From the sequence record ON862890.1: 64,000 nt of DNA; one strand, written 5' to 3'. The notes under the pieces are model-generated. The model was not told where the DNA came from. It ran no database searches and saw only the letters and a program-made list of their open reading frames with translations. A program made the translations under genes and the position numbers. This document shows, one piece after another, positions 1,661 to 56,976 of the stretch (positions are counted from its first letter, which is position 1; each line of letters begins with the position of its first letter). The DNA comes from Escherichia phage A221.

Positions 1661-2320
1661 ATGTCCTACTCCCTGAAGGGGCTGATGAAGCGCCCCGTCC
1701 ACACATTCTTTAAACCACCCGTCGTAAAGGGGATCTACCCAGCACGAGGGCAAATCTACTACGTCAAAGGCTCCAATGGTAGCGGTAAATCCACTGTGCC
1801 GTCTCAGCTGGCGGAGAGGGATCCTCAGGCGTATGTCGTGACCCATAACGGCAAGGTAATGCTGACTGTCTGTCCTTCGTTCAACGTGGTCTGTATCGGT
1901 AAATATGACAAGTCGAAGTCCAAGGGGGTTGATTCCCTGAAGGACACTGAGCAGATGTTGTTCGCGTTGTCTATTGCTGACCAACCAGAATACTTGAAAT
2001 ATGATGTGATTTTCGAAGGTATCATTCCATCAACATTATTGAGTTCTTGGATCCCCCGCCTGACACGCCCACCACGTGAATTGGTTGTGCTCTTTATGGA
2101 CACTCCCCTTGAAACGTGTATCTCCCGCGTTAAATCACGTAACGGTGGTGTGGACTTCAATGAAGGTCTGGTGGTCGAGAAGTGGGAGAGAGTTCATGAC
2201 CATCGTCAACGACATAAAGACTTGTTCCCTACGGTAGCTGCGGGTATGATGAAGTCTCACGGCCTAACGGTAGACCAGGCTGTGATGGCATTCCTCTGTC
2301 GTGATTTTGGGAGTATCTGA
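1661..2320 (+). CDS. P-loop nucleotide kinase (candidate modified-dNMP kinase)
   Basis: Walker A GSNGSGKST; GGAG RBS; stop overlaps start of downstream TS-family gene. Confidence 0.55.
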   Translation: MSYSLKGLMKRPVHTFFKPPVVKGIYPARGQIYYVKGSNGSGKSTVPSQLAERDPQAYVVTHNGKVMLTVCPSFNVVCIGKYDKSKSKGVDSLKDTEQMLFALSIADQPEYLKYDVIFEGIIPSTLLSSWIPRLTRPPRELVVLFMDTPLETCISRVKSRNGGVDFNEGLVVEKWERVHDHRQRHKDLFPTVAAGMMKSHGLTVDQAVMAFLCRDFGSI

Positions 2321-3366
2321 TGGAAATCAAAGCAATTAACAACAATGACATGCTGAAGCAGGCTGTCTTGGCTATCCGTGAATTCGGGATCGAATCTGAT
2401 CCTGGTAATGCTGAAATAAATACTGATAGCACCCGCTTCCTTGATGGCGTGACCATAACCGTCGCCGACATCCGTGACCGCTGGCTATCCGTTGAAGGTC
2501 GTAACTCATCGGCTATCGCTGCCATCGGCGAGACCTTCTGGGTTCTGTCCGGGCGCGATGACGTTCGCTTCCTGTCCCGCGTGTTGCCCCGCGCCGCCAA
2601 CTTTTCCGACAACGGCCACACATGGCGAGCCGCTTATGGTCCGCGTCTGTACGCCCATGGCCAGCTGGATAGCGTTATCAACCGCCTGCGCAAGAACCCA
2701 AACACTCGCCAGGCGTACCTCACCATCTATGACCCGGCTCTAGATTCGGATGCTGGTCTGGCGAAGTTCAGCGAGAGCGGCGAAGCGAAGACCAAGGACA
2801 TGGTGTGTAACTTGGCTCTGTTGTTCGCCATCGTTGAAGGTCGTCTGAACCTGACGGTCATCAATCGCTCACAGGATGTTCTTTGGGGGATGAGTTCAAT
2901 TAACTTCATTGAGTTCTCTATTCTTCAGGAAGTGATTGCTCGGGTGCTGGATGTTGATGTCGGTCAGTACAAGCTATTCTCTAATAATCTTCATTACTAC
3001 AACAATGAAGTCAGCCAGAAGCAGCTGGGCAAGATCACGAAGGACACCAAAGTAGAAGCTGGGTTCATCAACTCCATGATTCACTTCACGAACGTGACCA
3101 ACCAGAACCATATCCGCAATCTGTTCACTGGTGTGCTTCATCACTGTGATATCGGCAGCCCGTGGGAAACTGTGGTCGCCCACCTGAAGGAATATGATGC
3201 TGATCGTGGCCTGATTGTACAGATGGCGTACTGTCTGCACTGCAAACTGAACGAAAAGCTCATTAACCTGGACCTGATTCAGGATCATGGCTTGAACATC
3301 GCGCTCACCCATTCCCCGGTTGACCGCAAGATCGTTGATCCTAAGTTCCTGGAAGGTGTAGTATGA
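2320..3366 (+). CDS. thymidylate synthase-family pyrimidine hydroxymethylase-like enzyme (T4 gp42-like)
   Basis: TS-fold motifs: NTRQAYLTIYDP, catalytic Cys in DMVCN, NRSQDVLWG (compare T4 dCMP-HMase RSNDVVFG), NNLHYYNN; 348 aa, longer than ThyA. Confidence 0.65.
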   Translation: MEIKAINNNDMLKQAVLAIREFGIESDPGNAEINTDSTRFLDGVTITVADIRDRWLSVEGRNSSAIAAIGETFWVLSGRDDVRFLSRVLPRAANFSDNGHTWRAAYGPRLYAHGQLDSVINRLRKNPNTRQAYLTIYDPALDSDAGLAKFSESGEAKTKDMVCNLALLFAIVEGRLNLTVINRSQDVLWGMSSINFIEFSILQEVIARVLDVDVGQYKLFSNNLHYYNNEVSQKQLGKITKDTKVEAGFINSMIHFTNVTNQNHIRNLFTGVLHHCDIGSPWETVVAHLKEYDADRGLIVQMAYCLHCKLNEKLINLDLIQDHGLNIALTHSPVDRKIVDPKFLEGVV

Positions 3367-3932: not shown

Positions 3933-4483
3933 TCACAGCAGGGCATATCAAAAGCCTGCTCGAACTCCAAAAGGCCACCAACGTGGCCTACTTTGGGGAA
4001 GAGTGGAAGAATGTATGGAGTCAGAACGCAGTCATCAACTCTATCTATCGTGAGTGGGCAGAGTTCCTTGATGAAACCACCCGTGACTGGAAGGTCTATG
4101 GCAACGACATCGGGTTTGACCATACGAACGCAGTTTATGAACTGGTGGACGTGGTACACTTCATGTTGTGCTTCATCCTTGTGGACCGCACCAAAGGTGA
4201 GATCGAAGAAGAATTTGAAGTCCTTAGTAATCGCGAATTCACCCCATCTGCTTTGGGTGTTGTAGGGCATCGCAATGTTACGTACCGCCTTGGGCAATTC
4301 ATGAACGATCCTTGCGTTGAGACTCTCATGTTCTTCCTGTCGTCTGCGTGTTCTTATATGGAGATCGACATTGAGACTTACATACTGGCACACAAACGCA
4401 AGAACGATCGCAATCGCCTGCGTGCTGCTGGTGGCGCGGATTACGATAAGTCCGCAGAAACCCCTCTGACCCTGGAGTTCTAA
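3929..4483 (+). CDS. MazG-like dNTP pyrophosphohydrolase (T4 gp56 dCTPase-type role)
   Basis: ELVDVVHFMLCF motif like T4 gp56 ELVDIFHFVLNMF; coupled to flanking genes by overlapping stop/start. Confidence 0.5.
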   Translation: MITAGHIKSLLELQKATNVAYFGEEWKNVWSQNAVINSIYREWAEFLDETTRDWKVYGNDIGFDHTNAVYELVDVVHFMLCFILVDRTKGEIEEEFEVLSNREFTPSALGVVGHRNVTYRLGQFMNDPCVETLMFFLSSACSYMEIDIETYILAHKRKNDRNRLRAAGGADYDKSAETPLTLEF

Positions 4484-8249: not shown

Positions 8250-8564
8250 ATGTCTGTAGAACAAATCGGCTTTTATGTACTACCATCTGATCCTGAATCC
8301 CGTCGCAAGCTGATAGGTGCAATTGAAAACTGTCGTGCCGCCCAGGTCCGCATCAAGTCGGAACAGACTTTCATTACTGAGACTCTGGCCGAGCTGGCGA
8401 AAGACACGGGTATCAAGGCCAGCGACTTGCGCAAGGTTGTATCCGACCGCGCCAATGGAACTTACCATAAGACGATCGAAACGAGCGAGAAATATCAAGA
8501 CTTATACGAGTCTCTATTCCCGAACGCCAAGCCCGATCGAGATCCGAATGCCAGTGGCGAATAA
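8250..8564 (+). CDS. hypothetical protein
   Basis: AGAGGA RBS; 104 codons. Confidence 0.5.
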   Translation: MSVEQIGFYVLPSDPESRRKLIGAIENCRAAQVRIKSEQTFITETLAELAKDTGIKASDLRKVVSDRANGTYHKTIETSEKYQDLYESLFPNAKPDRDPNASGE

Positions 8565-8581
8565 GTCAATAGAACACCAAG

Positions 8582-8606
8582 AAGCCCAGTCAAGTACTGG
8601 GCTTTT
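8582..8606 (+). terminator. rho-independent terminator
   Basis: AGCCCAGT-caagt-ACTGGGCT followed by TTTTT, 18 nt after stop at 8564. Confidence 0.6.
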
Positions 8607-8679
8607 TAACTTCAATAACTTTACTTTCAAGAAATAATCGCCTAATATTTAATCTGTATTGAAGAGTTACAACTACATC

Positions 8680-9885
8680 ATGAGGCTGGAAATGAACGTC
8701 AAAACATTCAATATTCCGATCGACAATGGAGGGTTGGTAGTTGAGCGACTGAAGAAGCTCGAGCGCACTGCCGAAAGGCTGGGTGTTCCGTTTCCGACCG
8801 TGACTTATGGTGAACCCTTCAAAACCCACACCCGCGACTTCACTGGTGAGATCCTTACTCACTGGTGGAAACCTGTTACTCTCGAAGGCGAAGGCATTGA
8901 CCGCCCCATCTCTTATGGTGGCTGGAAGATCATCGGTCAGTTCAATCACGAATATCCAAAGGTTATTCTTAACCGCCTGTCCGACAACATCAATCCCGAC
9001 TTCATCCGTCGCTTCGAGGCAGAGAACGTCTCTTGGTGCCAGCATTGCAATCTAGCCATCCGTCGCAAGAACACATATGTGATTGAAAATGAGGAAACAC
9101 ACACCCAGATGCTGATTGGTAGCACCTGTATGCATCATTATGTGCCTCATCAGAAATCGCTTGACGCGATTATGTCTTACTATCTGGAAATCCAAGAGTT
9201 CTTCATGCCAGACGAGGACGATCCAGAGGGTATATATCGCGTCCAAAATGAGCGCTTCACCGACACCCACAGTTTCCTGCGCGCATGCTTCCAGGTGATG
9301 CTGGCAGGCGTGGATATCAAGTCTGAACTGTTTGACAAAGTACTGGGCTATGTCCGGTCTCACCAGAAACCAAAAGCAGGTTCCGATGAAGAGTATTTCG
9401 TAAACAAGGCACACGAATACCGTGAAGATGCCGAGTCGGAAATGTACCATATGAAGCTCTTCATCAGTGCGCTGTCCGAATCTAATGAGTTCAATGTTCG
9501 CCTGAAACGCATGTGTGAACCCGGCTATCACCTCATCAAGGATAACAACACAGTCCGCTGGGGTGCCAAGAAGTATTACGATTACATCCATCGTCCTCGT
9601 ACTGACCGCAAGGTGGAGAACAAATGGGTGGGTGAAGTCGGTGAAATGCTGGAAGTGCAAGTCAGGTTCGACAAGCGCACCTTTCTCTTCTCCAATGAAT
9701 ATGGTGATAGTTACCTGTTTACTTTCAAAACAGCAGAAGGCAATACAATTACCTGGAAGACCTCTTATATGGATACAGAGTTCTTGCAGGGCGATATGAT
9801 CATCCGTGGTCGTGTCAAAGAACTGACTGAGTACAACGGCGTTAAACAAACTCAGGTCACCAGAGCCAAATTGAGGAAATTATGA
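8680..9885 (+). CDS. hypothetical protein with Cys/His cluster
   Basis: Track ORF starts at TTG 8659; first ATG 8680; CQHCN...STCMHHY possible zinc site; no family recognised. Confidence 0.5.
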   Translation: MRLEMNVKTFNIPIDNGGLVVERLKKLERTAERLGVPFPTVTYGEPFKTHTRDFTGEILTHWWKPVTLEGEGIDRPISYGGWKIIGQFNHEYPKVILNRLSDNINPDFIRRFEAENVSWCQHCNLAIRRKNTYVIENEETHTQMLIGSTCMHHYVPHQKSLDAIMSYYLEIQEFFMPDEDDPEGIYRVQNERFTDTHSFLRACFQVMLAGVDIKSELFDKVLGYVRSHQKPKAGSDEEYFVNKAHEYREDAESEMYHMKLFISALSESNEFNVRLKRMCEPGYHLIKDNNTVRWGAKKYYDYIHRPRTDRKVENKWVGEVGEMLEVQVRFDKRTFLFSNEYGDSYLFTFKTAEGNTITWKTSYMDTEFLQGDMIIRGRVKELTEYNGVKQTQVTRAKLRKL

Positions 9886-9998
9886 ATTTGATTGAGTTTG
9901 TTCTGAAGTCGTTCGCCTTTGGTCTGATAGCATGTGGGATGATTACAGCTATGCTTCTCATCATAGCCCTGGTCATCCCCTTTAAGAGGAAACGCTGA
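9882..9998 (+). CDS. small hydrophobic protein (38 aa)
   Basis: ATGA overlap with upstream stop; MNLIEFVLKSFAFGLIACGMITAMLLIIALVIPFKRKR single TM; below track cutoff. Confidence 0.35.
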   Translation: MNLIEFVLKSFAFGLIACGMITAMLLIIALVIPFKRKR

Positions 9999-10210
9999 TG
10001 GAATGTTCATGCGGAGGGCAGGGCACAAGTGCTTACCTGCCATTCACCACTGTGAAGGAAGCCGAAGCCGCTGGATTTGCCGTGGACAAGGCTCCCTGTG
10101 TAATCGCCACGAAGGATTGCCCGTGCTGTAAGAGGCACTCTCAGGACGTCTTCTACGCCCCTGATGCGCGCCCGGCTACGGTCAACCTTCTTTCACTGAT
10201 GAGGAAGTGA
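9998..10210 (+). CDS. hypothetical Cys-containing small protein
   Basis: GAGGAA RBS; CSCGG...CPCCKRH. Confidence 0.4.
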   Translation: MECSCGGQGTSAYLPFTTVKEAEAAGFAVDKAPCVIATKDCPCCKRHSQDVFYAPDARPATVNLLSLMRK

Positions 10211-20727: not shown

Positions 20728-21237
20728 TTATTTGTCAGGGTTCACTAAAACAGGGGTGGATACCAGTTCGCCGCTCTTCACAGAATGCTGGACTACAACA
20801 ATCTGATCGACCATGCGATATACTTCAATCCCAGCAGCCAGCATTTCAATAATGCCGTCTATGATACGATATGGTCGGTCATAGAACACTTTAGCGATCT
20901 TGCCACTGTCGATAATACGACGGGTGCACTCTGGGCATGGACTATGAGTGACAAACATCACCAGGCCACAACAGTCTTCAGTGTGCTGGGGGAGTTTGCT
21001 CAGAGCATTCTCCTCGGCGTGGATAACACCCACCGATACCAGTTGACCGTCTACTTCCTTCTCACAGACATTAGGAGCGCCAGGAGCAGTCCCGTTCCAA
21101 CCGATAGACAGGGGCTGGTCAACACGCGGGTCAACGATAACACAGCCGACCTTCAGGCGCTGGGCATAGCTGGACAGAGCGTATGCATGAGCCGAGCGCA
21201 TATGCGCAAATAACATACGGGGTTTGATAGCCATCAC
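20728..21237 (-). CDS. cd: dCMP deaminase
   Basis: Zinc deaminase motifs HAEENAL and SPCPEC with preceding CVIVD...GWNGTAPG. Confidence 0.75.
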   Translation of the reverse strand: MMAIKPRMLFAHMRSAHAYALSSYAQRLKVGCVIVDPRVDQPLSIGWNGTAPGAPNVCEKEVDGQLVSVGVIHAEENALSKLPQHTEDCCGLVMFVTHSPCPECTRRIIDSGKIAKVFYDRPYRIIDGIIEMLAAGIEVYRMVDQIVVVQHSVKSGELVSTPVLVNPDK

Positions 21238-42694: not shown

Positions 42695-42737
42695 AAAAAG
42701 AAAGGGGAACGGGCTAATAATAACCCATTCCCCTTTA
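42695..42737 (-). terminator. terminator-like hairpin
   Basis: AGGGGAA ... TTCCCCT stem (42703-42734) flanked by A-run and T-run. Confidence 0.4.
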
Positions 42738-42965: not shown

Positions 42966-44201
42966 TCAGCGTTTCAAGAGTGCCATGAGGTTGACGCTGC
43001 TGGACTTCGACTTGTCCTCAACCTTACGCACAGGCATCTTCAGGTTCGTATATACTTCGGACGGTTCCCAGCGCGTACCCTTTTGCAGGTGCCAGATATG
43101 CAGAGGAACACCAGTCTCAAAGAACACAGGCATCTTCCACTTCTGGACGCCTGGAACGTGCCCTGCAGGAGCCTTTTCGCACAACAGGGTATCTGGCAGC
43201 CAGAGCGAACGGGCTTCCCAGAGCGCTGCGCAGGAGTATTCAGGCCAGACGCGTTCCATGTAGTCTATCTCATCCCAGGTACGCTCTGCGTCCCACCCGA
43301 TGTAACGAGTATTCTTCAGTCGGAAGAATTTCTTCAGCCAACAAGCACCGGAGGTTTCAAAGTTCAGGCGGTTGATGAACGTCAGGTGCCCGAACTCAGC
43401 CACACAATCCTGGAACGCCTGCTCAAGGTCGGCCTCAAGGATGTCACACTCTTCATCCGTGATAGGGCAACTGTTGATCTTTTTCTTCCCGTGTTTAGTC
43501 ACCCAATCGTCACGGTTGGACAAGAACGCCGCGCCATTACGGTTGGACTCGCTTCCATCACGATCACGCAACATGAAGCCAGGGACGTCAATGGTGTATT
43601 CGTTCCCGAAGACCATGTTCAGGGCTTCCAGGAAGTTCCAGGCGCTCAGGCGACCGAAGTATTTCCAGGACATCGCCGTGTCCCACAGCTGGGTGAATTG
43701 TTCTGTCTTATCGATGCACACCAACATCCCACGGAAAGCGTCATATTGAGTACGGCCAGCCAGCCAGTCAATATAGGACTGAACACACGGAATCATCTTG
43801 GACTTGCGGTAGCGACAGTCGGTATCGAATCGCATGCGATCAAAGTTCAGATTATACCAATCAGAGAAGCGCTGCATCTCTTCCTTAGACTGAGGCGGCA
43901 CAGGGAACTCACTGTAGATCGTCCACGGCCCGACGGCGTTATAGCAACAACCCCACAGGAATGCCATCCAGATCTTGCGCTCGACTTTCTGTTCGAGGCT
44001 GATGCCTTCAGTGACTTCGATCGCATAGTCCATCAGACGCATCTGCTGGTTGTGCTCTTCTGTGTAGGACAGCGCCTCCACCCAAGCCTTGAGCAAGTAC
44101 ATGCGATTCTCAGGCTTGCGATAATCAACAGCCAGGTCAATCGGGTACTTCCATTCAGCCGGAGGCGTATAGCCCGTCGGCATTTTAGATAAATGATGCA
44201 T
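42966..44201 (-). CDS. hypothetical 411-aa protein; candidate DNA base-modification enzyme by context
   Basis: Large soluble protein, Trp/Cys-rich, no motif recognised; same transcription unit as P-loop kinase 44759-45664. Confidence 0.5.
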   Translation of the reverse strand: MHHLSKMPTGYTPPAEWKYPIDLAVDYRKPENRMYLLKAWVEALSYTEEHNQQMRLMDYAIEVTEGISLEQKVERKIWMAFLWGCCYNAVGPWTIYSEFPVPPQSKEEMQRFSDWYNLNFDRMRFDTDCRYRKSKMIPCVQSYIDWLAGRTQYDAFRGMLVCIDKTEQFTQLWDTAMSWKYFGRLSAWNFLEALNMVFGNEYTIDVPGFMLRDRDGSESNRNGAAFLSNRDDWVTKHGKKKINSCPITDEECDILEADLEQAFQDCVAEFGHLTFINRLNFETSGACWLKKFFRLKNTRYIGWDAERTWDEIDYMERVWPEYSCAALWEARSLWLPDTLLCEKAPAGHVPGVQKWKMPVFFETGVPLHIWHLQKGTRWEPSEVYTNLKMPVRKVEDKSKSSSVNLMALLKR

Positions 44202-44564
44202 CTTTCGCTTCCTCTTCAGGAGCCACAGCTTCAGGCTCAGGAGCCAGCTGAATATCTTCCGGCTTCACGAACCCCATCGGACGTTCCCACATATCGACAA
44301 AGCGACGGTCAGCGGTCACGAACCACAGACGGGCTGCGGTGTGGGTCTTACTCGAGATGAACATCTGAGCGTTCGTCTGGGTACGGAACGGAGCAGCCTG
44401 CAACCACTTGCCAAAGTCTTTGGACGACGGATTGGCATTCAGCTGGAACTGAGGGATGACGCAGTTCTTTTCAGGAATCAGGCGCACGGCAGTAATGTGC
44501 TTGGCGTTTCCGGTGTAGTCGATCGCAACAGCCACAGCATCGCGAGGGATTTGAATTTTCATTT
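44185..44564 (-). CDS. hypothetical protein
   Basis: Start trimmed to MKIQIPRD at 44564. Confidence 0.4.
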
Positions 44565-44762
44565 TGGTTCCTTGAATATTTTGTAACCAGCAGCGCCGAT
44601 AGACATCACCGCGCCAATACAGTACATCACAGTCACGTTCAACTTCTCTGAGGTTGTTAAGTCCAGAGGGGTGAAATGATAGGCTAGGGCAGTACACATT
44701 GAAACGGCTGCCATAACCAGACCAATGAACAACAGATAATTAGACAACCGTTTCATGATCAT
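44559..44762 (-). CDS. small membrane protein
   Basis: Two TM helices in 67 codons. Confidence 0.4.
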   Translation of the reverse strand: MIMKRLSNYLLFIGLVMAAVSMCTALAYHFTPLDLTTSEKLNVTVMYCIGAVMSIGAAGYKIFKEPK

Positions 44763-45664
44763 CCCTTCTTCATCAGGTCAAGGAGAGAGCGCGACGCTGC
44801 CTTCGTTGCTTCTGGCTGGGCGCTCGCCTTGGTTTTAGTTTTGGATGCCTTCTGCGGCTTCTCAGGCACTCTGTGCGCCAAAGGATCATCACCGCCGACC
44901 TCACGGGTCATTGGATTGGTTTCACAGTAGGCATAAAAATCTTTGATGTCAAGGTTAACCGCGCCGATATCCATCTGATAAGCGATAGCATCCCCGACAA
45001 CCCAAAGAGGGGCATCAAACGGCATGACTGCCAGTTCGCTACGTGGATCCATTTCCCACTCATTCTGAGAAGGTTTTGTATACTCAACATCCTGCCCACT
45101 GTACACGTCTGCCAAAACGTTCCACCCCAGTGCCAACATTTCGGCCTTCGACTTCTCAAACTCCTTGTAGTAAGATTCGTTGCGCGACCAGCCGGAGTTC
45201 CCTGCTTCTTTACCAGAGCGACCACGGATACGAGCATCGTACTGATAGCGGTCGGGGTACGCAAAGTACAGCAGCGCCAATGATTCAATCGGATAGTTCT
45301 TGAACATCCATTCAGGACGCCATTTGTCCGATAGCATGAGAGGTTCTCCCTCGCACACCAGAGTGTATCCCTGAACCAACCAGCACTTGATTAGATCACG
45401 AGCAATATCGCCTGAGCCTGTAGCAGCATGGATTGCATCCATTGAAGTCCAGGAAGCCAGGCCGGATTTGTTAGACACGGTGTACTGTCCAACGAAGATT
45501 AACTTCAGCTCTCCGAACTTCAAGCCAAACGGGCGAGTCTTGTCACCAACGGTGTAGGTCAGTTCGGTAGGCTCCAGCTTAGTGCGCAGCCATTCGATGA
45601 ACTGGACCACTCTCGTACCCTTACCCACGCCACTTGTTCCCTTCACTACAATTATTTTAGCCAT
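44759..45664 (-). CDS. P-loop kinase (candidate DNA-level 5-hydroxymethyl-pyrimidine kinase)
   Basis: Walker A KGTSGVGKGT; 301 aa with Lys/Ala-rich tail; function inferred from context only. Confidence 0.5.
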   Translation of the reverse strand: MAKIIVVKGTSGVGKGTRVVQFIEWLRTKLEPTELTYTVGDKTRPFGLKFGELKLIFVGQYTVSNKSGLASWTSMDAIHAATGSGDIARDLIKCWLVQGYTLVCEGEPLMLSDKWRPEWMFKNYPIESLALLYFAYPDRYQYDARIRGRSGKEAGNSGWSRNESYYKEFEKSKAEMLALGWNVLADVYSGQDVEYTKPSQNEWEMDPRSELAVMPFDAPLWVVGDAIAYQMDIGAVNLDIKDFYAYCETNPMTREVGGDDPLAHRVPEKPQKASKTKTKASAQPEATKAASRSLLDLMKKG

Positions 45665-46343
45665 TCATTATTCTCCAACCGAGACATGTTTTAGCCCTAC
45701 CTTTCAAGAGATTCGTTATATTACCAGAAGGGAGGCCATATTGAAGTTCCATATCGCATCTTCTTAACTCAACAATGCGATCATCTTTGTGCTGCCATTT
45801 GTAAATCGTTTCATCGCGGCCAGGACCAATGTCTATCAGGCCAAGAGCATGCAACTGTTTCCTTGTCTCACCTGCTCGCCTCTGGGCTTCTGAAGGTGGA
45901 GGTAATGGCTTCTTTATCACTCCCTCGGAAATCAGTTTCCTTCTGGTTTCACCACCCTTTCTTTGTGACTCAGCCGATATGCGGGGAGGTGGCTTGATCT
46001 TACCCTCAGCGATCAAACGTTTGCGGGTTGCAGCACTCTTTGCGGATGAATTAGGCGTGGCCAATGGAGGCTTCCCACCCCCGACGACCATGTTGTAGCA
46101 CCACCCAGAGTCAAGGATCTCCTGGCAGACCAGTTCAGACTCTATCTGAAGGATAACCGAATCTTTCCCTCGGAACAGAACTTCAAACTTGAACTGGTCT
46201 TCACCGTATTTCTTGAACGCTCGTTGTAATGCAATGCTCCCCTGACCACACTTATGCTCAGCCAACCGCCTATCCGGTTCTGAGGTGACACCGATATAGA
46301 ATTTATGATTGACGAGATTCGTGATCAGGTAAAGCGACAGCAT
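45657..46343 (-). CDS. GIY-YIG homing endonuclease (free-standing)
   Basis: LYLITNLVNHKFYIGVTSEPDRRLAEHK GIY-YIG motif; repeated Gly/Lys-rich NUMOD-like linkers. Confidence 0.8.
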   Translation of the reverse strand: MLSLYLITNLVNHKFYIGVTSEPDRRLAEHKCGQGSIALQRAFKKYGEDQFKFEVLFRGKDSVILQIESELVCQEILDSGWCYNMVVGGGKPPLATPNSSAKSAATRKRLIAEGKIKPPPRISAESQRKGGETRRKLISEGVIKKPLPPPSEAQRRAGETRKQLHALGLIDIGPGRDETIYKWQHKDDRIVELRRCDMELQYGLPSGNITNLLKGRAKTCLGWRIMNG

Positions 46344-46657: not shown

Positions 46658-47437
46658 CTATCGGACGTATTGATAATGACTAATCAGGCGGTTAACCACT
46701 TCAACAATATTGTAATTCAGGAAGTCGAAGTGATTCTGGCCTTCTACTGGTTTAATATAAAGCATGTCTTCCGAATTCGAAAGATCCAGTTTTTCATAAT
46801 TGCCCTGAGGAACAAAGATGACAAAGATGTTGTTCAGGCCGCACGGCTCGACATACTTCGGATTGTCATCAATCAGGACATCGCCAGCCAGCAGATGCTT
46901 TTCGTCGGTGCTGACAAATCCGTTGAAGATACCAGGGAACTTGTCGTAGACAAACTGGCGCTTGCTGCGCTCGTGTTCCGGCTCACACTTGGACACTGCG
47001 ATGAATTCAACATTGTCGAAATCTTCGAGCAAGATATCCTTCAGATTTACCAGGAACTCGTAAGCGCCGGGGAGCGGGTTCATCTTGGCGTACAAGTCAG
47101 GGCGACGCCACCAGTCCATAGGATCGTTACCGCTTGGCACACGTTGTTTGTGCATCCCCAATTGGACTTCATGGTATAGCCACGCCGGATGCGCACGTTC
47201 ACGCATCAGAATAGCCAGGTCGCCAGCATGGGACATATAACACTCTTTGGTAATCGGCTGGAACTGGTATGACTTATGTTCCCCCGTAGCGATAGCAGCG
47301 GCGGCGATGTTCTCTTCGTTAAACCACTGCACCCAAGGGGAGAGGCTGTCGACCAACGTCAGGTCAACATCCACGAGGACGCGATACAGGCCACCGACCT
47401 TTGATTTCATATCATAGATACAAACCAGGTTGTTCAT
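46658..47437 (-). CDS. HAD-family 5'(3')-deoxyribonucleotidase-like phosphatase
   Basis: HAD motif I VLVDVDLTLVD (DxDxT); C-terminal GDVLIDDNP like NT5C family. Confidence 0.5.
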   Translation of the reverse strand: MNNLVCIYDMKSKVGGLYRVLVDVDLTLVDSLSPWVQWFNEENIAAAAIATGEHKSYQFQPITKECYMSHAGDLAILMRERAHPAWLYHEVQLGMHKQRVPSGNDPMDWWRRPDLYAKMNPLPGAYEFLVNLKDILLEDFDNVEFIAVSKCEPEHERSKRQFVYDKFPGIFNGFVSTDEKHLLAGDVLIDDNPKYVEPCGLNNIFVIFVPQGNYEKLDLSNSEDMLYIKPVEGQNHFDFLNYNIVEVVNRLISHYQYVR

Positions 47438-47837: not shown

Positions 47838-49419
47838 TCAACCTTTCTTCTTTTGCATCATGGCAAGAAGGTTCACACGGCGCTTGTGTGACCAGCCGAC
47901 CACGTCGAGGATAGACTGAATCGGATCAATGAAGGACTTCTCAAAGGCCGCCTGATAATCCACCCATTTGCCCAGACCAAGTTCCTCGGGGAAGAACTCA
48001 GGATATGCAAAGTAGTTCTGCCCAAACGGGTTGCCCGGCTTCAACAACACCATCTGTACCTTATCACCCGACTCGATCATCGGTAGACCCAGATCTTCGT
48101 TCTTCTCAACCAGACGGTTGTAGCCCACACACGCCTTGGCAGCAAAATGAGCACCAGAGATGAACGATCCGTCAGCAGCCACACACTTCTCTACGTCGGA
48201 CACGCCTGACGCCTTGGCGATATCGTCTACAGAGAGTTTCATGTACTCCTCTTTGTACTGGGAGATGAGCGTCTGTACTTCCTCTTCGGTGCCGAGTAGG
48301 ATCTTCTCATAGCACTTGACAAGGCGCTCACGACACCATTCCGGCGTGGTGGACTTGCGGGCTTCCAGACCTTTGAACTTGATCTTCGGCTTCTCGTACT
48401 TGATACCCTCACTGTCGTACACGGCCATGGCATACATCTTCTTGGCTCGCCAGACAGCGGCTGACGCAATGACCTCACGCTCCCACACCATGCGCTGTTC
48501 AAATCCGTTCATGGTGTTACACAGAAGCTGTGCCCACTCATTGGTCTTCGGCTGGTAGTTGTCTTTGATCCATTGGTCGATATTATCAACCATAGCATGA
48601 TGGTCAGTAACATCAGACCACAACTGCTTGACAAGACGCTCAATGCAGATGTAGTTGGAGTCGGTATCCCCTGCGATGACGAAGTCCTGGCCTGTTGTAC
48701 CACACAGCTTGTTCAGATAGTCATCAGTGTAACGCTTGTTCCACTTGTTGATCAGCTGACCGGATGTGGTGATGGCTTCGGCAATGTTGAGGTTGAAGTA
48801 CTCTTTGAACCAGACGTTCGAGATAGCGCCATAACCTGCGTTCATCAAGATCTTCAGACCTTGCTGTAGGGTATCTTGAGCGACGCCCAGGTCTTCCCAC
48901 TTCTTCATCACTTCGGTCAGGGCATCAAGATCAATGTTCTTGTGCTCTTCATACCACTCTGGGTCATAGTAGCGAGACTTCATGGCAGACTCAAGATGGA
49001 AGTCGCCCTTCGACATCTCTTTACACCAGCCAGCCCACTGCTCATACTTCAGACCCTTGGCCTTCTCTACTTTACGGTCGCTGTAGATACCACGCATGAT
49101 TTCAGACAGGAACGACATCTTCTCGTTGCTGAAGAATTGAACGTTCGGCGTGAACGACACGTTGTAGCGGCGCAGGGTTTCAAAGTGGAACTCACCCAGG
49201 GCAACCAACTCATCAACAACCTGCAGGCGTTCGTCAACCGCACGCAACAGCTTGTCGTGAAGGGCTTTCATCAACCGACGTTTGTGCATCGGCGTTGCCA
49301 TGTTATTCATCTGAGCAGCCAGCTCTTCACACATAGCCTCAATAATCTCGCGGCGCTGGTGTTTGTCGCCAACGATAGTCTCTGGACCGAGGTTGTATTG
49401 CTGAATGATGTGTGGATAT
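47838..49419 (-). CDS. 43: DNA polymerase (family B) exon 2
   Basis: Begins inside motif A (YPHIIQQYNLGPETI); KILMNAGYGAISN and VIAGDTDS (motif C); track ORF 47838-49466 includes 47 nt of intron. Confidence 0.85.
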
Positions 49420-49884
49420 CGCTTATGTTCAGGGATGCTCGCTATTTCATCCCCCGTGTTCGTCATTCAGTTTACCGAACACTGCTGTATGTCACCATAC
49501 AGGCCAGACTATATCACAATCTCCAGAACTGTCTAGAGATTCTCTCCATTTCGAGGCGCTTGCCCCTACTCTACTCGCTTCAGATCAGACGCTTAGTCGT
49601 CGGTCTTGCTTTCGATAGTCGTTGAACCTTGTCACCCACTACTTCAAGGAAATCATCTGGGTTTAACCCAGCGTAACCAAAGAGTCGTTTGAAGTTTCTT
49701 GCCAACTTGCCCCACTCATTCTGGCAAACATTTCCTTCATGACCTTACTCCTTCACCGAGGTTACAGAGTATTTAGATCTTCGTGGCCGACCTTGGCTGC
49801 TGATTATCTCTAAAGAGACTTCCCAGCAATTAAGAGAGTTATTCGATGGTTGTCGCCAACCAAAGCCCCTATGCTGCTAACTTA
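49420..49884 (-). ncRNA. group I self-splicing intron (no ORF) in DNA polymerase gene
   Basis: On minus strand: P-like AATTGCTGGGAAG, Q-like AATCAGCAGCC, R-like GGTTCAACGACTA, S-like GATATAGTC (P7 GACTA/TAGTC); exon 1 ends in U, intron ends in G; splice restores DLNSLYPHII. Confidence 0.75.
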
Positions 49885-51302
49885 AGGGAGTTCAAATCTT
49901 CCGAGAAGACCCAGAAGTAGATTCCTGGTGTCACATCCATGACGTATGCACCCTCAAAGTCGGTCGGACCATCGTATACACGCTGGATCTTAGGCACTAT
50001 CCCCTTCTCGTACAGGCGATAGTAGCACATGGCCAGCCACGGAGCCACAGTGCCCAGACCGTCTTCATAGTTGGACTTGGTGCGGTAGGCCAGGACGAAC
50101 ATCAGTTGGAGCAGGCGCAGCTTCTGTTCAAGTCGCCATACCAGCTTAACGTCTTTGATACCATATCGGGTGTGTTTGCAGTAGTCGTTGAAGTACAGAT
50201 CAAAGAGCGACTTGCTCTCACTGTAGTCCATCTTCTTCTCACCCAGCTCACAATACGCAATCCAGTCAAGAGAGTAGCGTTCACGGGTGGTGTACGTGTG
50301 TTTCTTGTAGATCTGCATATAATCGAGCATAGGGCAACCCACGAACTGATACGTCGTGATATCGCCCTTCTTATCGCGAATGATACGCTTCTTAATGATA
50401 CCCCAAGGACTGAGGCGCGACGTTTCAGCCTCACCCAGAACCTGATTCATGCGCTCAACAAGATACGGGCTATCGAACGTTTCAATGTTCCAGCCTGTCC
50501 AGCCATCAAACTGACGCTGTGACCAGAAGTCTAGGAACGAGCGCAGCAGATCTTGTTCGGTGGTGAACTCCTGATAAACAACCTCAAGGCCGCCGATCTC
50601 TTTGTCTTCGGTGTCGTATGCGAATTTGTTACGATCTTTGGCACAGGGCATACCCCAGACCATGAACTTATTGGTCGCCATATCCTGAAGCTGGATCAGG
50701 GTAATGGGGAACGCCGCATTCATGTCTTGGGTGATCTTGCCGTTGCTGTCAATGATAGGGAACTGATCAGTGACGTTGTTGCTGATGAAAGAACCAGGGA
50801 AGTGCTCACGGACAAATTCATGGTTGGCCAGCACTTGTTTATGGAAGCGGCGAATGCGCGCCTCATTCCCTTTGAACGTCTGCTGCTCAATGGTTGGGTG
50901 AGGGAATGGACCTTTGGTCATCTTTCCGTCTTTCCACCCGGCGGAGAACACTTCGATATCGAGGTTAGCAATATGGATGTTGGAATAATCCGGCTCAATC
51001 TTTCCAGGAAAGCTATGGGCGATGAACTGGTATGCATAATCGGTCTGTCCGTAAATGGCAGCACCCTGGACTTCCTTGTACTCTTCAAGATAGTTGTCAG
51101 CGTCACGCATGGAAGGGAACTGCTTGGCTACCAGGGGTTCATTGAGAAGACCGACCTTTTCAACATTTGAATAGTCAGCCGTGGGTAAATAGAGAGTGGG
51201 TTCGAATTTCTTTTTCAACAGACGGCGATTACCCATGTCATCTGCAATTCGAATCAACAGGTCATTGCCCCTTCGGGCAACGTTCGTATAGAAAACGGTC
51301 AT
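49885..51302 (-). CDS. 43: DNA polymerase (family B) exon 1
   Basis: N-terminus aligns to T4 gp43 (MTVFYTNV..); Exo I ANLDIEV, Exo II WNIETFDSPY; ends in motif A DLNSL. Confidence 0.85.
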
Positions 51303-54198: not shown

Positions 54199-55473
54199 TC
54201 AGGAAGGGGTGAAGTCGTTTACAGGAACTGTTTCAGGGATAGCCAGCTCAGGGCATGCTGCCTTCATCGGCTCTATGTATGGCTTGCTACCCACAATCCA
54301 GAACAGAGTGTTCTCATTGAGCACCTCTGGCTTGTTCTGCTGGATCCAGGTCATGACCTTGCCTTCATAGCGAGGATGCAATTCGATATCACCCCACTGA
54401 TATTCCATCAGGTCATTGTAACGAACCCAATTAGTGGTGTGAAGATCCCAATGGTGTACCTCAAAGCGAGGAAGCACGACCTCTGGCTCTTCCTTCTGCC
54501 TGATACCACTTAGGAGGCCAGCCAGAGAAACGCTCTTAGAGGCATGCTGAAGCTCCTTCTTGCCGTGTACATAGTCTGGGTTGTCGTGATAGCGACGGGT
54601 GAAGTCGACAATGTGCGGTAGATTGGCATGTTTGCCGATGATACGCAGACGGCTCTCAATGAAGCCCAGGCGGTTCGGACCGATGCCAATCAGATACACA
54701 CGCTTCAGATTAGGCTTCGGATGCATTGCCAGCCCGGTCAGAATGCTTGTGCAAGAGTTGCACGATCCGGCTGGGATAATCAGATCGGTAATATGGTCAG
54801 GGATGTTGGCAACCTGCTCGCCACCCAGCATATGGAAGCCAGCGATGCGCTCAGGAGAATGCGCTGTATGGTCGAGGGTGATACCATATTCCAGATAATA
54901 CGCCTTTGGATTCTGTTGTTCGATCAACTTCTTACAGCGCGGCTGGATCGTGCTGTTGTAACCCGAGCCGACGAAGTTGAACTCACTACCAAACCAGGCT
55001 GACATTGCCACCATGTCGTGGTTCATACAGGTGGTGGGTTTGGTCGCTCCGAGTACAGTGGTTGTCTTGCCGCCGAAGTGCCGAGAGACTGCCGTCGCCA
55101 TAGGGGACTGCGGACTACCAACGACAGTACCATGGATGATGTCAGGGGAGCCTCCGGTCTTCAGGTGCTCAACCATCAACCAGATGGCCTGGCGCAACTT
55201 ACTGCCATTGATGCCCTGCTTGCCATTCATATAACAAGATAGCGGCGCGAAGTAATCTTCACGCTTGAACCAGACCTGCTGGTTAGTTTCGGGGTTGGCG
55301 ACGAGTTCACACGGAGTGTGTTTGTAGAGGTAGTCTTCCCAGTGAATATGTTCACGATGAAGAGAGAGGACATCAAAAATCGTTTTGTATGGACCTTTCC
55401 CTAACGTGTGGAACGGGATATACGTGCGGAACGGGATATATGGAGCGAGGGGTTGTGCAGCGAATTTGTTCAT
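54199..55473 (-). CDS. PLP-dependent enzyme, tryptophan-synthase-beta-like fold (candidate modification enzyme)
   Basis: GINGSKLRQAIWLM resembles fold-type-II PLP Lys motif; later Gly/Ser-rich loop IPAGSCNSCTS; AGGAGA RBS. Confidence 0.45.
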   Translation of the reverse strand: MNKFAAQPLAPYIPFRTYIPFHTLGKGPYKTIFDVLSLHREHIHWEDYLYKHTPCELVANPETNQQVWFKREDYFAPLSCYMNGKQGINGSKLRQAIWLMVEHLKTGGSPDIIHGTVVGSPQSPMATAVSRHFGGKTTTVLGATKPTTCMNHDMVAMSAWFGSEFNFVGSGYNSTIQPRCKKLIEQQNPKAYYLEYGITLDHTAHSPERIAGFHMLGGEQVANIPDHITDLIIPAGSCNSCTSILTGLAMHPKPNLKRVYLIGIGPNRLGFIESRLRIIGKHANLPHIVDFTRRYHDNPDYVHGKKELQHASKSVSLAGLLSGIRQKEEPEVVLPRFEVHHWDLHTTNWVRYNDLMEYQWGDIELHPRYEGKVMTWIQQNKPEVLNENTLFWIVGSKPYIEPMKAACPELAIPETVPVNDFTPS

Positions 55474-55542: not shown

Positions 55543-56187
55543 TTATTTCTTGAATAAACGAAGGAACTTCATCATGTTTTCCATGAAAGTCGGCTTCTTG
55601 ACCTTTTGTTTTACCGGAGCGCCCTGATCATTCAGAACACGATTGGCCGGAGGAGTTGGATTCAAAGATTTAATTGCCTGATTCAAATCGGAATTATCCA
55701 CGACACCCACTTCTTCACCGACCGTAACGCATGGTTTGATTAGAACGGATTTCTTAGACTGCTCATACTGATGAGCGATATCCAGATATTTCTTGCGCTC
55801 TGCGTAGAAATCAACAGACTTGACCTTGCGACGACGCCAATTGGCGCTTTCTTCGCCATAGAAATCATATCCGTTTCTGATCAGCCAGTGCACGGCTTGT
55901 TCAAACGAACCGAAGACCATAAGTGGAGCGCCCTGGCCTTTCTCAGATTGTTCCAGGCTACCATAACCCATCAGCACAACCTGGCCTTTGATACTCAAAT
56001 CAAACGTCATACCAAGGTTCGGGATGTTTTTATCGCGGCGGAAGAACCCGCCATCACGGTAGACGTAAACAGGCGACAGGAACTCATTCAGAGTACGCTT
56101 GACACCCTTGTATTGGAAGAGTCTGACAATTGGAGGGGTGTCATGGGAAATCACTTCGTTCAATTCCCAGATAGAAACATTACGCAT
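55543..56187 (-). CDS. hypothetical protein
   Basis: 214 codons. Confidence 0.5.
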   Translation of the reverse strand: MRNVSIWELNEVISHDTPPIVRLFQYKGVKRTLNEFLSPVYVYRDGGFFRRDKNIPNLGMTFDLSIKGQVVLMGYGSLEQSEKGQGAPLMVFGSFEQAVHWLIRNGYDFYGEESANWRRRKVKSVDFYAERKKYLDIAHQYEQSKKSVLIKPCVTVGEEVGVVDNSDLNQAIKSLNPTPPANRVLNDQGAPVKQKVKKPTFMENMMKFLRLFKK

Positions 56188-56557: not shown

Positions 56558-56646
56558 TGGCGGAAGGTGAAGGATTCGAACCTTCGGGGGCTAAAAGCCC
56601 CACTCGATTAGCAGTCGAGTCCCTTAAACCTCTCGGGCAACCTTCC
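56558..56646 (-). tRNA. tRNA-Ser (anticodon GCU)
   Basis: Cloverleaf folded by hand: acceptor GGAAGGT/ACCTTCC, anticodon loop CTGCTAA, long variable arm, T-arm GAAGG-TTCGAAT-CCTTC, CCA encoded. Confidence 0.85.
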
Positions 56647-56899: not shown

Positions 56900-56976
56900 T
56901 GGTGATCCTGATTGGGTTTGAACCAATGACCAATGAATTATGAGTTCACTGCTCTAACCAACTGAGCTACAGGACC
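56900..56976 (-). tRNA. tRNA with CAU anticodon (Met, or Ile if lysidine-modified)
   Basis: Acceptor GGTCCTG/CAGGATC, D-arm GCTC-AGTTGGTTA-GAGC, anticodon loop CTCATAA, T-arm ATTGG-TTCAAAC-CCAAT, CCA encoded. Confidence 0.85.

Follow-up and report, generated by a model that had tools for sequence, protein, structure and literature searches.

Two minus-strand genes of Escherichia phage A221 (ON862890.1; a stretch of 64,000 nucleotides was analyzed, here called the window) make up, as judged by homology, the post-replicative core of the known 5-NeOmdU pathway of thymidine hypermodification, and their products end in short peptides that resemble the C terminus of the phage DNA polymerase and may dock on the sliding clamp. 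Taken as a whole, we hold this explanation with good confidence. That one gene encodes a 5-hmdU DNA kinase and the other an amino acid:DNA transferase, with the chemistry set out below, is close to certain from their similarity to characterized enzymes. This pathway has already been characterized and named, and the gene identification itself adds little; the polymerase-like tails are the useful part. The window comes from a phage of the Ackermannviridae (Aglimvirinae, Agtrevirus-like), and its features are listed in Table 1.

Table 1. Positions in the window of the modification genes, their neighbors, and the tails
Feature	Position	Strand	Basis
5-hmdU DNA kinase 1 (HMUDK_HMUD1; ViI gp67 type)	1661..2320	+	Pfam PF18748, 362 bits
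Thymidylate-synthase-fold enzyme, putative dUMP hydroxymethylase and 5-hmdU source	2320..3366	+	Pfam Thymidylat_synt, phrog_3676
TVNLLSLMRK, polymerase-like tail ending a 70-aa Cys-rich protein (ORF 9998-10210) encoded upstream of DNA ligase	10178..10207	+	
dCMP deaminase	20728-21237		Pfam search
Strong intrinsic-terminator-like hairpin closing the minus-strand unit	42701..42736	-	16-bp stem and T run
TATAAATA, T4-type late-promoter-like, directly 3' of the transferase stop codon	42958..42965	-	Exact match
Amino acid:DNA transferase (AADT/ADDT, formerly aGPT-Pplase2; ViI gp247 ortholog), 411 aa	42966..44201	-	Pfam PF18724
Transferase polymerase-like C-terminal tail SSVNLMALLKR, residues 401-411	42969..43001	-	Follows low-confidence linker
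Transferase catalytic motif E282-T283-S-G-A-C287	43341..43358	-	Homolog alignment
125-aa protein (ViI orf245 counterpart, 58% identical)	44185..44562	-	phrog_4163
67-aa predicted membrane protein, between kinase and transferase (ViI orf244 counterpart)	44559..44762	-	phrog_4514
5-hmdU DNA kinase 2 (HMUD2; ViI gp243 ortholog), 301 aa	44759..45664	-	Pfam PF18747
Kinase polymerase-like C-terminal tail SRSLLDLMKKG, residues 291-301	44762..44794	-	Predicted terminal helix 294-299
Kinase Lys/Ala/Pro-rich flexible linker, residues 271-290	44795..44854	-	pLDDT 48-60
Kinase Walker A P-loop GTSGVGKGT, residues 9-17	45614..45640	-	Read from sequence
GIY-YIG (SegD-like) homing endonuclease, inserted just upstream of kinase	45657..46343	-	Pfam GIY-YIG, phrog_19446
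NT5C/HAD-type 5'(3')-deoxyribonucleotidase-like protein	46658..47437	-	Pfam NT5C; 76% identical to ViI orf239
DNA polymerase (family B, T4 gp43-like), second exon	47838..49466	-	Pfam DNA_pol_B; RB69 gp43 E 4e-61
Polymerase C-terminal tail RRVNLLAMMQKKKG	47841..47882	-	HMMER alignment with RB69 gp43
PLP-dependent decarboxylase (ViI gp226 ortholog), last pathway step	54199..55473	-	90% identity to ViI gp226
Related tail FMENMMKFLRLFKK of a 214-aa protein (55543-56187) beside the PLP gene	55546..55587	-	

An earlier note on this DNA had tentatively cast the 301-aa and 411-aa proteins, encoded in one minus-strand unit, as a kinase acting on 5-hmdU in DNA and its partner, which replaces the phosphate. 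Both open reading frames are present exactly where it placed them, in one tightly packed run, and the proposal is supported for both enzymes. The 301-aa protein matches Pfam PF18747 (HMUD2) over its full length (residues 1-300 on profile positions 1-298; 500.4 bits, cut-off 25) and is 82% identical to gp243 of Salmonella phage ViI (Vi01), with conserved synteny; ViI gp243 phosphorylates 5-hmdU in DNA (PMC8989533). The Walker A motif that the note had read is there (VKGTSGVGKGT, residues 7-17), and its residues G9, S11, G14, K15, and G16 are invariant among 39 homologs, as are E105-G106-E107, R116, R139, R145, and R149. In the AF2 model (pLDDT 87.5), residues 1-270 are folded. The 411-aa protein is indeed rich in Trp (20 residues, 4.9%) and Cys (11 residues, 2.7%). 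The claim that it has no recognizable family is wrong: it belongs to Pfam PF18724 ADDT (203 bits, cut-off 26.2; residues 49-292 on profile positions 2-228 of 232). It is 89% identical, without gaps, to ViI gp247, which as a purified protein moves serine onto 5-phosphomethyl-dU (PMC8989533). The ViI orthologs, gp243 (5-hmdU DNA kinase, "kinase 2") and gp247 (serine:DNA transferase), were described by Lee et al. 2018 PNAS (PMC5889632) and Lee et al. 2021/22 NAR (PMC8989533); they have the same lengths as the window proteins, and the gene order from polymerase to transferase is alike. The nearest GenBank relative (98.4% identical DNA) names the two proteins "P-loop nucleotide kinase 2" and [quoted passage not shown]

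The catalytic residues of the transferase are conserved across the family. E282 and T283 occur in all 62 aligned homologs and C287 in 61 of them, including the glycine:DNA transferases PaMx11 gp46 (PUGT, PDB 8z2m) and M6 gp51. These residues align with E243/T244/C247 of PUGT, and hhalign pairs the same positions; ViI gp247 requires its active-site Cys and Glu (PMC8989533). C341 (DTLLCE), which a four-sequence MAFFT alignment had offered as the counterpart of PUGT Cys247, was rejected, as the 62-sequence alignment gives C287; C341 is present in only 39 of the 62 homologs. The fold is all-helical and HhH-DNA-glycosylase-like, as in PUGT; a Foldseek search of the transferase against PDB gave no meaningful match. 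Identity to PaMx11 gp46 and M6 gp51 is 17-19% in the 62-sequence alignment, and the window enzyme is about 120 residues longer, with N- and C-terminal elaborations.

A competing assignment would place the kinase among enzymes that act on nucleosides, dNMPs, or polynucleotides and take the 411-aa protein for a virion component or something unrelated. In its favor, "guanylate kinase" is the name that the kinase bears in RefSeq and PHROGs, and Foldseek in PDB finds for it only weak matches to NMP kinases (E about 3e-3); a phmmer search with both proteins against PDB sequences found no match. The label, however, is an automated name without a tested basis, and the full-length HMUD2 match at 500 bits, the 82% identity to an enzyme proven to phosphorylate 5-hmdU in DNA, and the fit of the 411-aa protein to the fold and catalytic motif of PUGT already refute this alternative, to which we give a negligible probability. 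The kinase groups apart from the polynucleotide and nucleoside kinases, and the 411-aa protein is no component of the virion.

The route 5-hmdU to 5-PmdU to O-serinyl-T to 5-NeOmdU has been reconstituted from the ViI orthologs (PMC8989533, PMC5889632). We infer its steps in this phage from 82-90% identity, conserved catalytic residues, fold, and synteny. The thymidylate-synthase-fold hydroxymethylase, together with nucleotide-pool enzymes, would yield 5-hmdUTP, which the phage polymerase would incorporate instead of dTTP; the hydroxymethylase specificity is presumed by analogy with the ViI pathway. In duplex DNA, kinase 2 would then convert 5-hmdU to 5-phosphomethyl-dU by moving the ATP gamma-phosphate onto the 5-hydroxymethyl group. 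The transferase, with its HhH-glycosylase fold, would flip out that base, and Cys287 would attack C6; departure of the phosphate would leave an exocyclic C5 methylene, to which the side-chain hydroxyl of free L-serine would add, giving O-serinyl-thymidine. Decarboxylation of this product by the PLP enzyme would give 5-(2-aminoethoxy)methyl-dU. The PLP enzyme scores 28.7 bits against Pfam PALP, under the 35-bit gathering cut-off. The context genes that the earlier note had cited in support (hydroxymethylase, dCMP deaminase, HAD phosphatase, and PLP enzyme) were all found, and the window also holds a dUTPase gene. Three accessory genes of ViI (HMUD1 kinase, PLP decarboxylase, and the thymidylate-synthase-fold enzyme) are shared with this phage, and a gp160-type paralog is present in the near-identical phage RPN242.

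Serine as the donor is suggested by the identity to gp247 and by the gp226-type decarboxylase. Members of the transferase family use glycine (M6, PaMx11), putrescine (PhiW-14), or serine (ViI), and the 11% divergence from gp247 is concentrated in residues 61-120 and 155-175, so a different donor, and with it a hypermodified thymidine other than that of ViI, deserves consideration. We find this improbable given the ungapped 89% identity to gp247, the cognate PLP decarboxylase at 90% identity to gp226, and the presence of 5-NeOmdU in Kuttervirus and in a Taipeivirus, the latter more distant from ViI than this phage is. Measurements have found 5-NeOmdU in ViI, CBA120, and a Taipeivirus, and reviews describe the pathway as conserved across the Ackermannviridae. 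Serine would be attached here via its O-gamma, in contrast to glycine via N-alpha in PaMx11 and M6.

The minus-strand run reads polymerase exon 2, a 116-aa gene, the NT5C-like gene, a 101-aa gene, the GIY-YIG endonuclease, kinase, 67-aa gene, 125-aa gene, and transferase, with intergenic gaps of -17 to +53 nt. The kinase and transferase genes are therefore not adjacent but separated by the two small ORFs; the 125-aa ORF shares its first 4 nt with the end of the gene upstream and its last 17 nt with the start of the transferase gene. The 67-aa gene is found in enteric genera and is missing from Vibrio and metagenomic lineages, in which the kinase and transferase genes directly adjoin. Because those lineages lack both small ORFs, we rejected them as core parts of the module; the 67-aa membrane protein is a lineage-specific passenger. 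An NT5C gene lies near the kinase and transferase genes also in the distant lineages examined. Compared with ViI, a member of Cvivirinae/Kuttervirus, this phage has the GIY-YIG endonuclease inserted upstream of the kinase, a position at which ViI lacks it, and a group I intron interrupts its polymerase gene. The LIMEstone1 record has a terminator annotated at the position equivalent to the hairpin that closes the unit, and a "putative late promoter" at the position equivalent to TATAAATA; the latter is the sole exact match within the window, a count not above chance (0.71 expected). A sigma-70 promoter scan of the minus-strand unit stayed at background level (12 found versus 10.6 expected).

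The short peptide that ends the polymerase also ends kinase 2, the transferase, the gp160-type paralog, and the small ligase-adjacent protein. In the polymerase it is positioned by a HMMER alignment, in which "krrvnllam" pairs with "ekkaslfdm" of RB69 gp43 (residues 890-900 of 903), and the RB69 gp43 C terminus is clamp-binding (PMC2988020). In the two enzymes, poorly conserved linkers of low pLDDT (in the transferase, below 65 from about residue 386) lead to predicted terminal helices at residues 294-299 (kinase) and 405-410 (transferase). The kinase linker diverges completely between genera, whereas the tail is kept; the last 40 residues of the kinase match the LIMEstone1 tail at 38 positions, unlike the ViI tail. 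Tails of the same type end ViI gp243 (SVSLLGLMRKA) and gp247 (TSVNLMSLLKR), and the relatives of the 214-aa protein end in ...FFRRLLDFLTK (RPN242) and ...FFRRLMDFLTK (ViI). Kinase 1 has no polymerase-like tail (C terminus ...AFLCRDFGSI). A refined tail motif has seven matches in 1819 six-frame ORFs of RPN242, six of them at the extreme C terminus of real genes. A repeated DNA element at gene ends was rejected as the source of the tails because their codons differ and the downstream sequence is unrelated. We found no earlier mention of such tails in the open-access papers covered.

Across at least six lineages, the tail flavor changes jointly in the polymerase and the enzymes, and all 13 enzyme tails score highest against the polymerase tail of their own clade. 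In Vibrio phage K469, seven ORFs end in [KR][KR]L[FW] (0.27 expected), and six of these are real genes: the polymerase, kinase 2, the AADT, HMUDK_hel, the small ligase-adjacent protein (same phrog_4789 as the 70-aa protein here, with the KLW tail of K469), and a gp33-like coactivator ending in ..KTKRLF. The Vibrio polymerase keeps an internal VNLFAL and has added a new KLW end. Polymerase and enzyme flavors also match in lineages L017 (EELSLFDF with VSLEDFFS), L020 (xALW; five of 18 genes end in LW, and all five encode polymerase or modification proteins), L021, and L023; L022 has NVFDIF, NVLDFFG, and SILDLL. Acidic flavors occur only in lineages other than that of this phage (L017, L022), some of them close to the T4 type (EELSLFDF, NVFDIF). 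We saw no polymerase, clamp, or clamp loader of the T4 type in the phages that supply tail-less homologs, as far as the annotated regions of PaMx11 and M6 and the loci L024 and L025 show; no clamp gene is annotated in the PaMx11 and M6 regions examined, and the transferases of these two phages lack a polymerase-like tail. The identical scan on T4 recovers gp55, a known clamp binder.

These patterns make it very likely that the tails are a functional motif for one shared partner. Similarity without shared function, through chance, low-complexity basic ends, or common descent, is conceivable for motifs of six to nine residues, and basic C termini are common among nucleic-acid-binding proteins. 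Yet common descent is excluded because the bearers have unrelated folds (B-family polymerase, P-loop kinase, HhH-like transferase, Zn-ribbon), and the C-terminal concentration of the motif in RPN242, the excess in K469, the restriction of LW ends in L020, the joint switches of flavor, and the retention of tails beside varying linkers leave this alternative a very small probability, lower than that of a non-serine donor.

The sliding clamp is the probable shared partner. We propose that kinase 2, the transferase, and the gp160-type paralog each have a disordered linker and then a short C-terminal helix copying the clamp-binding peptide of the polymerase, and that this peptide would dock them on the phage gp45-type clamp, whose gene lies outside the window, so that modification would be coupled to newly replicated DNA. 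T4/RB69 gp43, gp33, and gp55 peptides are built alike, with a short hydrophobic extreme C terminus after a variable flexible linker, common to the polymerase and unrelated proteins; the clients there are transcription factors (gp33, gp55), and here DNA-hypermodification enzymes. Several observations speak against docking on the clamp. In the window (LLDLMKKG, NLMALLKR), as in Vibrio (KTRKLW), the tails combine hydrophobic with basic residues and lack the acidic composition of the T4 and RB69 peptides; because of this, we do not class the window tails as members of the T4 motif but only as working like it. Enteric gp33-like (..DALKSKKLV) and gp55-like proteins have no clear copy of the tail, though their T4 counterparts bind the clamp C-terminally, and the Vibrio polymerase has two candidate clamp contacts, the internal VNLFAL and the KLW end. 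Purified ViI gp247 and the ViI kinases act in vitro without a clamp, and the tail is therefore not needed for catalysis.

Some of these observations would also suit a different partner: the peptides could bind another hub, or they could be amphipathic helices of the MinD/FtsA kind that place the polymerase and modification enzymes at a membrane-associated replication site. Hydrophobic plus basic tails resemble membrane-targeting sequences, no clear tail is seen on the gp33-like and gp55-like proteins of the enteric phages, and the new KLW end of the Vibrio polymerase, beside an RB69-like VNLFAL, could have a partner of its own. We consider these two versions together unlikely. Acidic and neutral tails (L017, L020, L022), which would not attach to membranes, match between polymerase and enzymes all the same; the polymerase tail is positionally homologous to the clamp-binding peptide of RB69; the tail of the K469 coactivator (KRLF) is on a gp33-like protein, and T4 gp33 is a clamp ligand (PMC2988020); and the acidic clamps (-9 and -24 per monomer) complement basic tails.

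Recruitment of DNA-modifying enzymes by a clamp has been considered elsewhere. Sommer and colleagues reportedly claimed in 2004 that the T4 alpha-glucosyltransferase interacts with gp45, and eukaryotic DNMT1 has a PIP box for PCNA. The concept shared with docking of the tailed enzymes is that a replication clamp recruits a post-replicative DNA-modifying enzyme. The T4 interaction is disputed, with negative pull-downs (NAR 2026, PMC13216743). Our T4 scan found no gp43-like tail on a-gt, b-gt, or dam, in agreement with those pull-downs, in contrast to the Ackermannviridae, in which the tail signature is explicit and covaries with the polymerase; the tails thus bear on this dispute. ParB-dependent phage T-dioxygenase/AADT cassettes (PNAS 2026, PMC13229309) likewise combine an AADT and a P-loop kinase acting on 5-hmU-derived bases and link this machinery to a DNA-loading protein. 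They differ in that a Tet/JBP enzyme oxidizes T in DNA to 5-hmU, without a dUMP hydroxymethylase, and their AADTs are tail-less.

We found no explanation in the papers covered for the targeting of hypermodification, its timing before packaging, or its restriction to part of the thymidines. A polymerase-mimicking tail on three DNA-level enzymes offers a concrete hypothesis that mutation can test, and the tails suggest that gp160-type proteins and the small ligase-adjacent protein act in the same complex. For use of the enzymes as DNA-labeling tools, addition of clamp plus loader is predicted to raise efficiency on primed DNA. We tentatively suggest, at somewhat less than even chances, that the DNA-level enzymes ride the gp45-type clamp and that hypermodification is physically coupled to replication in these phages, an undescribed clamp "tool-belt." If true, such a tool-belt could explain why only about 16-40% of thymidines are modified.

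Both ORFs described in the earlier note are present in the window: the 301-aa protein carries the Walker A sequence VKGTSGVGKGT, and the 411-aa protein is Trp/Cys-rich (20 Trp, 4.9%; 11 Cys, 2.7%). In Pfam, the former matches HMUD2 ("5-hmdU DNA kinase 2") over its full length with 500 bits, and the latter matches ADDT ("amino acid:DNA transferase") with 203 bits; we refer to them as the kinase and the transferase (AADT). They are 82% and 89% (gap-free) identical to gp243 and gp247 of Salmonella phage ViI, in which the gene order from polymerase to transferase is the same. ViI gp243 phosphorylates 5-hmdU in DNA, purified gp247 adds L-serine to 5-phosphomethyl-dU to yield O-serinyl-thymidine, and the PLP enzyme gp226 decarboxylates this product to 5-NeOmdU (PMC8989533; PMC5889632). 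As a nucleoside, 5-NeOmdU has a nominal mass of 301 u ([M+H]+ at m/z 302.135). In the proposed mechanism, a Cys of the transferase would attack C6, phosphate would be lost, and a nucleophile would add to the resulting exocyclic methylene; the basis is mutagenesis of Cys and Glu in gp247 and M6 gp51, trapping experiments, and the crystal structure of PaMx11 gp46/PUGT (Cys247, Glu243, Thr244). All 62 sequences of an alignment have transferase residues E282 and T283, and 61 have C287; the three align with PUGT E243, T244 and C247. The predicted kinase model (pLDDT 87.5) has only distant P-loop NMP-kinases as structural neighbors, and no close homologue of the kinase was found among solved structures.

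Genes for the rest of the pathway are also in the window (see the table). According to reviews, the pathway genes are kept throughout Ackermannviridae, and ViI and CBA120 have 5-NeOmdU in place of ~40% of T; a 2026 preprint gives 16.4% 5-NeOmdU in a Taipeivirus. Given these identities, the ViI orthology, the conserved catalytic residues and the accompanying pathway genes, the proposal that a DNA kinase works with a phosphate-substituting partner enzyme is supported, and the kinase-transferase gene module is real, correctly interpreted and already known. Some database names are misleading: PHROG places the HMUD1 kinase in "terminase small subunit," the name that RefSeq gives to its M6 and PaMx11 orthologues, and both RefSeq and PHROGs call the HMUD2 kinase "guanylate kinase."

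The region is 98.4% identical to that of Escherichia phage vB_EcoM-RPN242 (Ackermannviridae, Aglimvirinae), where the two genes are annotated as "P-loop nucleotide kinase 2" and [quoted passage not shown] and it matches 277 phage records, mostly Ackermannviridae of Salmonella, Klebsiella, Escherichia and Dickeya. The minus-strand run comprises, in order, polymerase exon 2, a 116-aa ORF, the NT5C-like gene, a 101-aa ORF, a GIY-YIG endonuclease gene, the kinase, a 67-aa ORF, a 125-aa ORF and the transferase, with intergenic gaps of −17 to +53 nt. A TATAAATA motif, a single match whose count alone is not above chance, immediately follows the transferase stop codon; a 55-aa ORF and then a terminator close the run. 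Because this run is compact and ends in a terminator, the kinase and transferase belong to one unit, as the earlier note had claimed, but they are not neighbors in the strict sense, as two small ORFs intervene. Enteric Ackermannviridae retain both ORFs, which share 32% and 58% identity with those of ViI; Vibrio and metagenomic relatives lack them, and there the kinase and AADT genes abut.

Coordinates of features in the window
Feature	Coordinates	Strand	Remarks
HMUD1 kinase, ViI gp67 type	1661-2320	+	
TS-fold enzyme	2320-3366		
dNMP kinase	3363-3932		
dUTPase_2	3929-4483		
70-aa Cys-rich ORF upstream of DNA ligase	9998-10210	+	phrog_4789; ends ...ATVNLLSLMRK
dCMP deaminase	20728-21237		
Terminator	42736-42701		16-bp stem
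Transferase, 411 aa	42966-44201	-	ends ...SSSVNLMALLKR
67-aa predicted membrane protein and 125-aa protein	44185-44762	-	
Kinase, 301 aa	44759-45664	-	ends ...AASRSLLDLMKKG
Homing-endonuclease hot spot	44759-46343		5' side of kinase gene
NT5C-like nucleotidase	46658-47437		
DNA polymerase ORF	47838-49466		family B
Group I intron	49485-49872	-	Rfam RF00028, 58.8 bits (gathering score 50)
DNA polymerase ORF	49869-51302		family B
PLP enzyme	54199-55473		90% identity to gp226
214-aa protein	55543-56187	-	phrog_4050; ends ...FMENMMKFLRLFKK
tRNA gene	56561-56646	-	Rfam RF00005, 56 bits
tRNA gene	56903-56976	-	Rfam RF00005, 70.6 bits

A group I intron interrupts the polymerase gene. It contains no endonuclease ORF in the window; RPN242 carries an additional ORF of 879 nt (gp176) there, and the LIMEstone1 polymerase is in three pieces, split by the two intron endonucleases I-LimII and I-LimIII. 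Beside the kinase gene, on its 5' side, the window's GIY-YIG gene shares 8 nt with the kinase start, Vibrio phage D503 has a homing endonuclease at the equivalent position, and LIMEstone1 encodes a 531-aa endonuclease-kinase fusion, F-LimXI. Phage YX22 and similar close relatives are ~98% identical to the window up to about 44885 but carry a Limestone-type kinase allele of only 48.6% identity. The kinase domains of the window and LIMEstone1 are 47% identical, and 38 of their last 40 residues are identical. The pattern looks like endonuclease-driven exchange of kinase alleles, with a junction in the linker and a breakpoint near 44885. Just beyond the PLP/gp168-like pair lie two tRNA genes; tRNA-Ser and tRNA-Met are annotated in the corresponding region of RPN242.

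Separate from the known module is a similarity among C-termini. The polymerase ends in ...KRRVNLLAMMQKKKG, and the tail peptides of the kinase, transferase and polymerase, set side by side, are SRSLLDLMKKG, SSVNLMALLKR and RRVNLLAMMQKKKG. HMMER pairs the polymerase tail (krrvnllam) with residues 890-900 of the 903 of RB69 gp43 (ekkaslfdm), whose C-terminal peptide was co-crystallized with the RB69 clamp; in T4, the similar C-termini of gp43, gp33 and gp55, on divergent linkers, serve interchangeably as clamp ligands (PMC2988020). Among 1819 six-frame ORFs of RPN242, a refined tail motif has seven matches, and six of these lie at the very C-terminal end of the product of a real gene: polymerase, kinase 2, transferase, the 70-aa protein, gp121 (Pfam HMUDK_hel, ViI gp160/aGPT-Pplase1 type) and gp168, which adjoins the PLP gene. 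The gp33-like and gp55-like proteins have no such tail, and neither do HMUD1, the PLP enzyme, ligase and RNase H. AlphaFold models of the kinase and transferase place the tail as a short terminal helix behind a low-confidence linker.

The 70-aa protein is Zn-ribbon-like (CxC...CxxC), and a role as a clamp adaptor for ligase is speculation. The 214-aa protein beside the PLP gene has no Pfam match; its orthologues end in ...FFRRLLDFLTK (RPN242) and ...FFRRLMDFLTK (ViI). It is 94.5% identical to that of RPN242 up to residue 200, beyond which a shorter, unlike linker leads to a similar tail. The PLP enzyme is tail-less, so this neighbor might recruit it; no homologue of the 214-aa protein was found in Vibrio phage K469.

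Across lineages, the tails, carried by proteins of unrelated fold, co-vary with the polymerase C-terminus. In the enteric genera (the window, ViI, LIMEstone1, Menlow and 3M), the polymerase, kinase 2 and transferase keep a [VS][NS]L[LM]x[LM][LM]..[KR] tail, and the linkers ahead of it diverge completely. The three tails have switched jointly in the Vibrio phages K469 and D503, to ...KKARKLW (polymerase), ...AKTKKLW (kinase 2) and ...VKTRKLW (transferase). Only four ORFs in the whole K469 genome end in KLW: these three and the phrog_4789 orthologue, which lies immediately upstream of ligase. The K469 HMUDK_hel orthologue (45% identity) ends in ...TKRLW and its gp33-like coactivator in ...KTKRLF; altogether, [KR][KR]L[FW] forms the C-terminus of seven K469 ORFs, where 0.27 would be expected. 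The polymerase of the Vibrio clade still has an internal, RB69-like KKRVNLFAL element, plus an added Lys-rich extension of 28 residues that terminates in RKLW; the enzymes have the KLW end only.

Further lineages have tail flavors of their own. At locus L020, the polymerase (...ETSALW), HMUD2 kinases (...TNDLW and ...KSSLW), AADT (...ENALW) and HMUDK_hel (...ENSLW) end in LW, as do none of the 13 other genes. AADT and polymerase pair as ...EELSLFDF and ...VSLEDFFS (L017), ...VTARRLF and ...VARRLF (L023), and ...SVNIFNLINK and ...VVNLLNLLNRK (L021), and [NS][VI][FL]D[IFL][FL] is common to three enzymes at L022. With simple BLOSUM scoring, the polymerase tail of its own clade is the best match for 13 of 13 enzyme tails. 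L020, from a metagenomic relative, has its two HMUD2 kinases (238 and 245 aa; 8531-9988) in tandem, both with the clade's xLW tail, and L019 encodes a tail-less 615-aa HMUDK_hel-HMUD1 fusion beside a separate tailed HMUDK_hel.

The tail-encoding codons differ between genes, and the downstream DNA is unrelated. AADTs of PaMx11, M6 and small contigs with ParB-Tet/JBP-kinase-AADT cassettes are tail-less; the annotated PaMx11 and M6 regions and the cassette loci showed neither a T4-type clamp nor a clamp loader. Two such loci, L024 (10001-11077) and L025 (10001-11179), lie on small siphovirus-like contigs, have ParB_N - Tet_JBP - (P-loop kinase) - ADDT cassettes next to genes for terminase or portal, and correspond to the ParB-dependent T-dioxygenase class of PNAS 2026 (PMC13229309). 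When T4 was scanned in the same way, gp55 was the best non-self match to gp43, and a-gt, b-gt and dam had no such tail, which agrees with a recent report of no gp45 binding by these three.

The main rival explanation is that the tail is a membrane-targeting helix or a ligand of another hub protein, a reading that the acidic and neutral tail flavors do not fit. Several observations count against a clamp as the partner: the enteric gp33-like and gp55-like proteins have no clear tail, the tail flavor is basic, not acidic, the Vibrio polymerase retains the internal VNLFAL, and the ViI enzymes are active in vitro without a clamp. The clamps themselves (gp126 in RPN242) are acidic, with a charge per monomer of about −9 for RPN242 and −24 for K469, and are compatible with basic tails. 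Neither the two pathway papers nor full-text searches mention a clamp, and within this incomplete coverage of the literature we found no earlier description of the polymerase-like tails. We regard the covariation as a well-supported lead, and its mechanism as a hypothesis. From the sequence comparisons we infer that the common partner of the tails would be a gp45-type sliding clamp and that hypermodification in these phages may consequently be coupled to replication.
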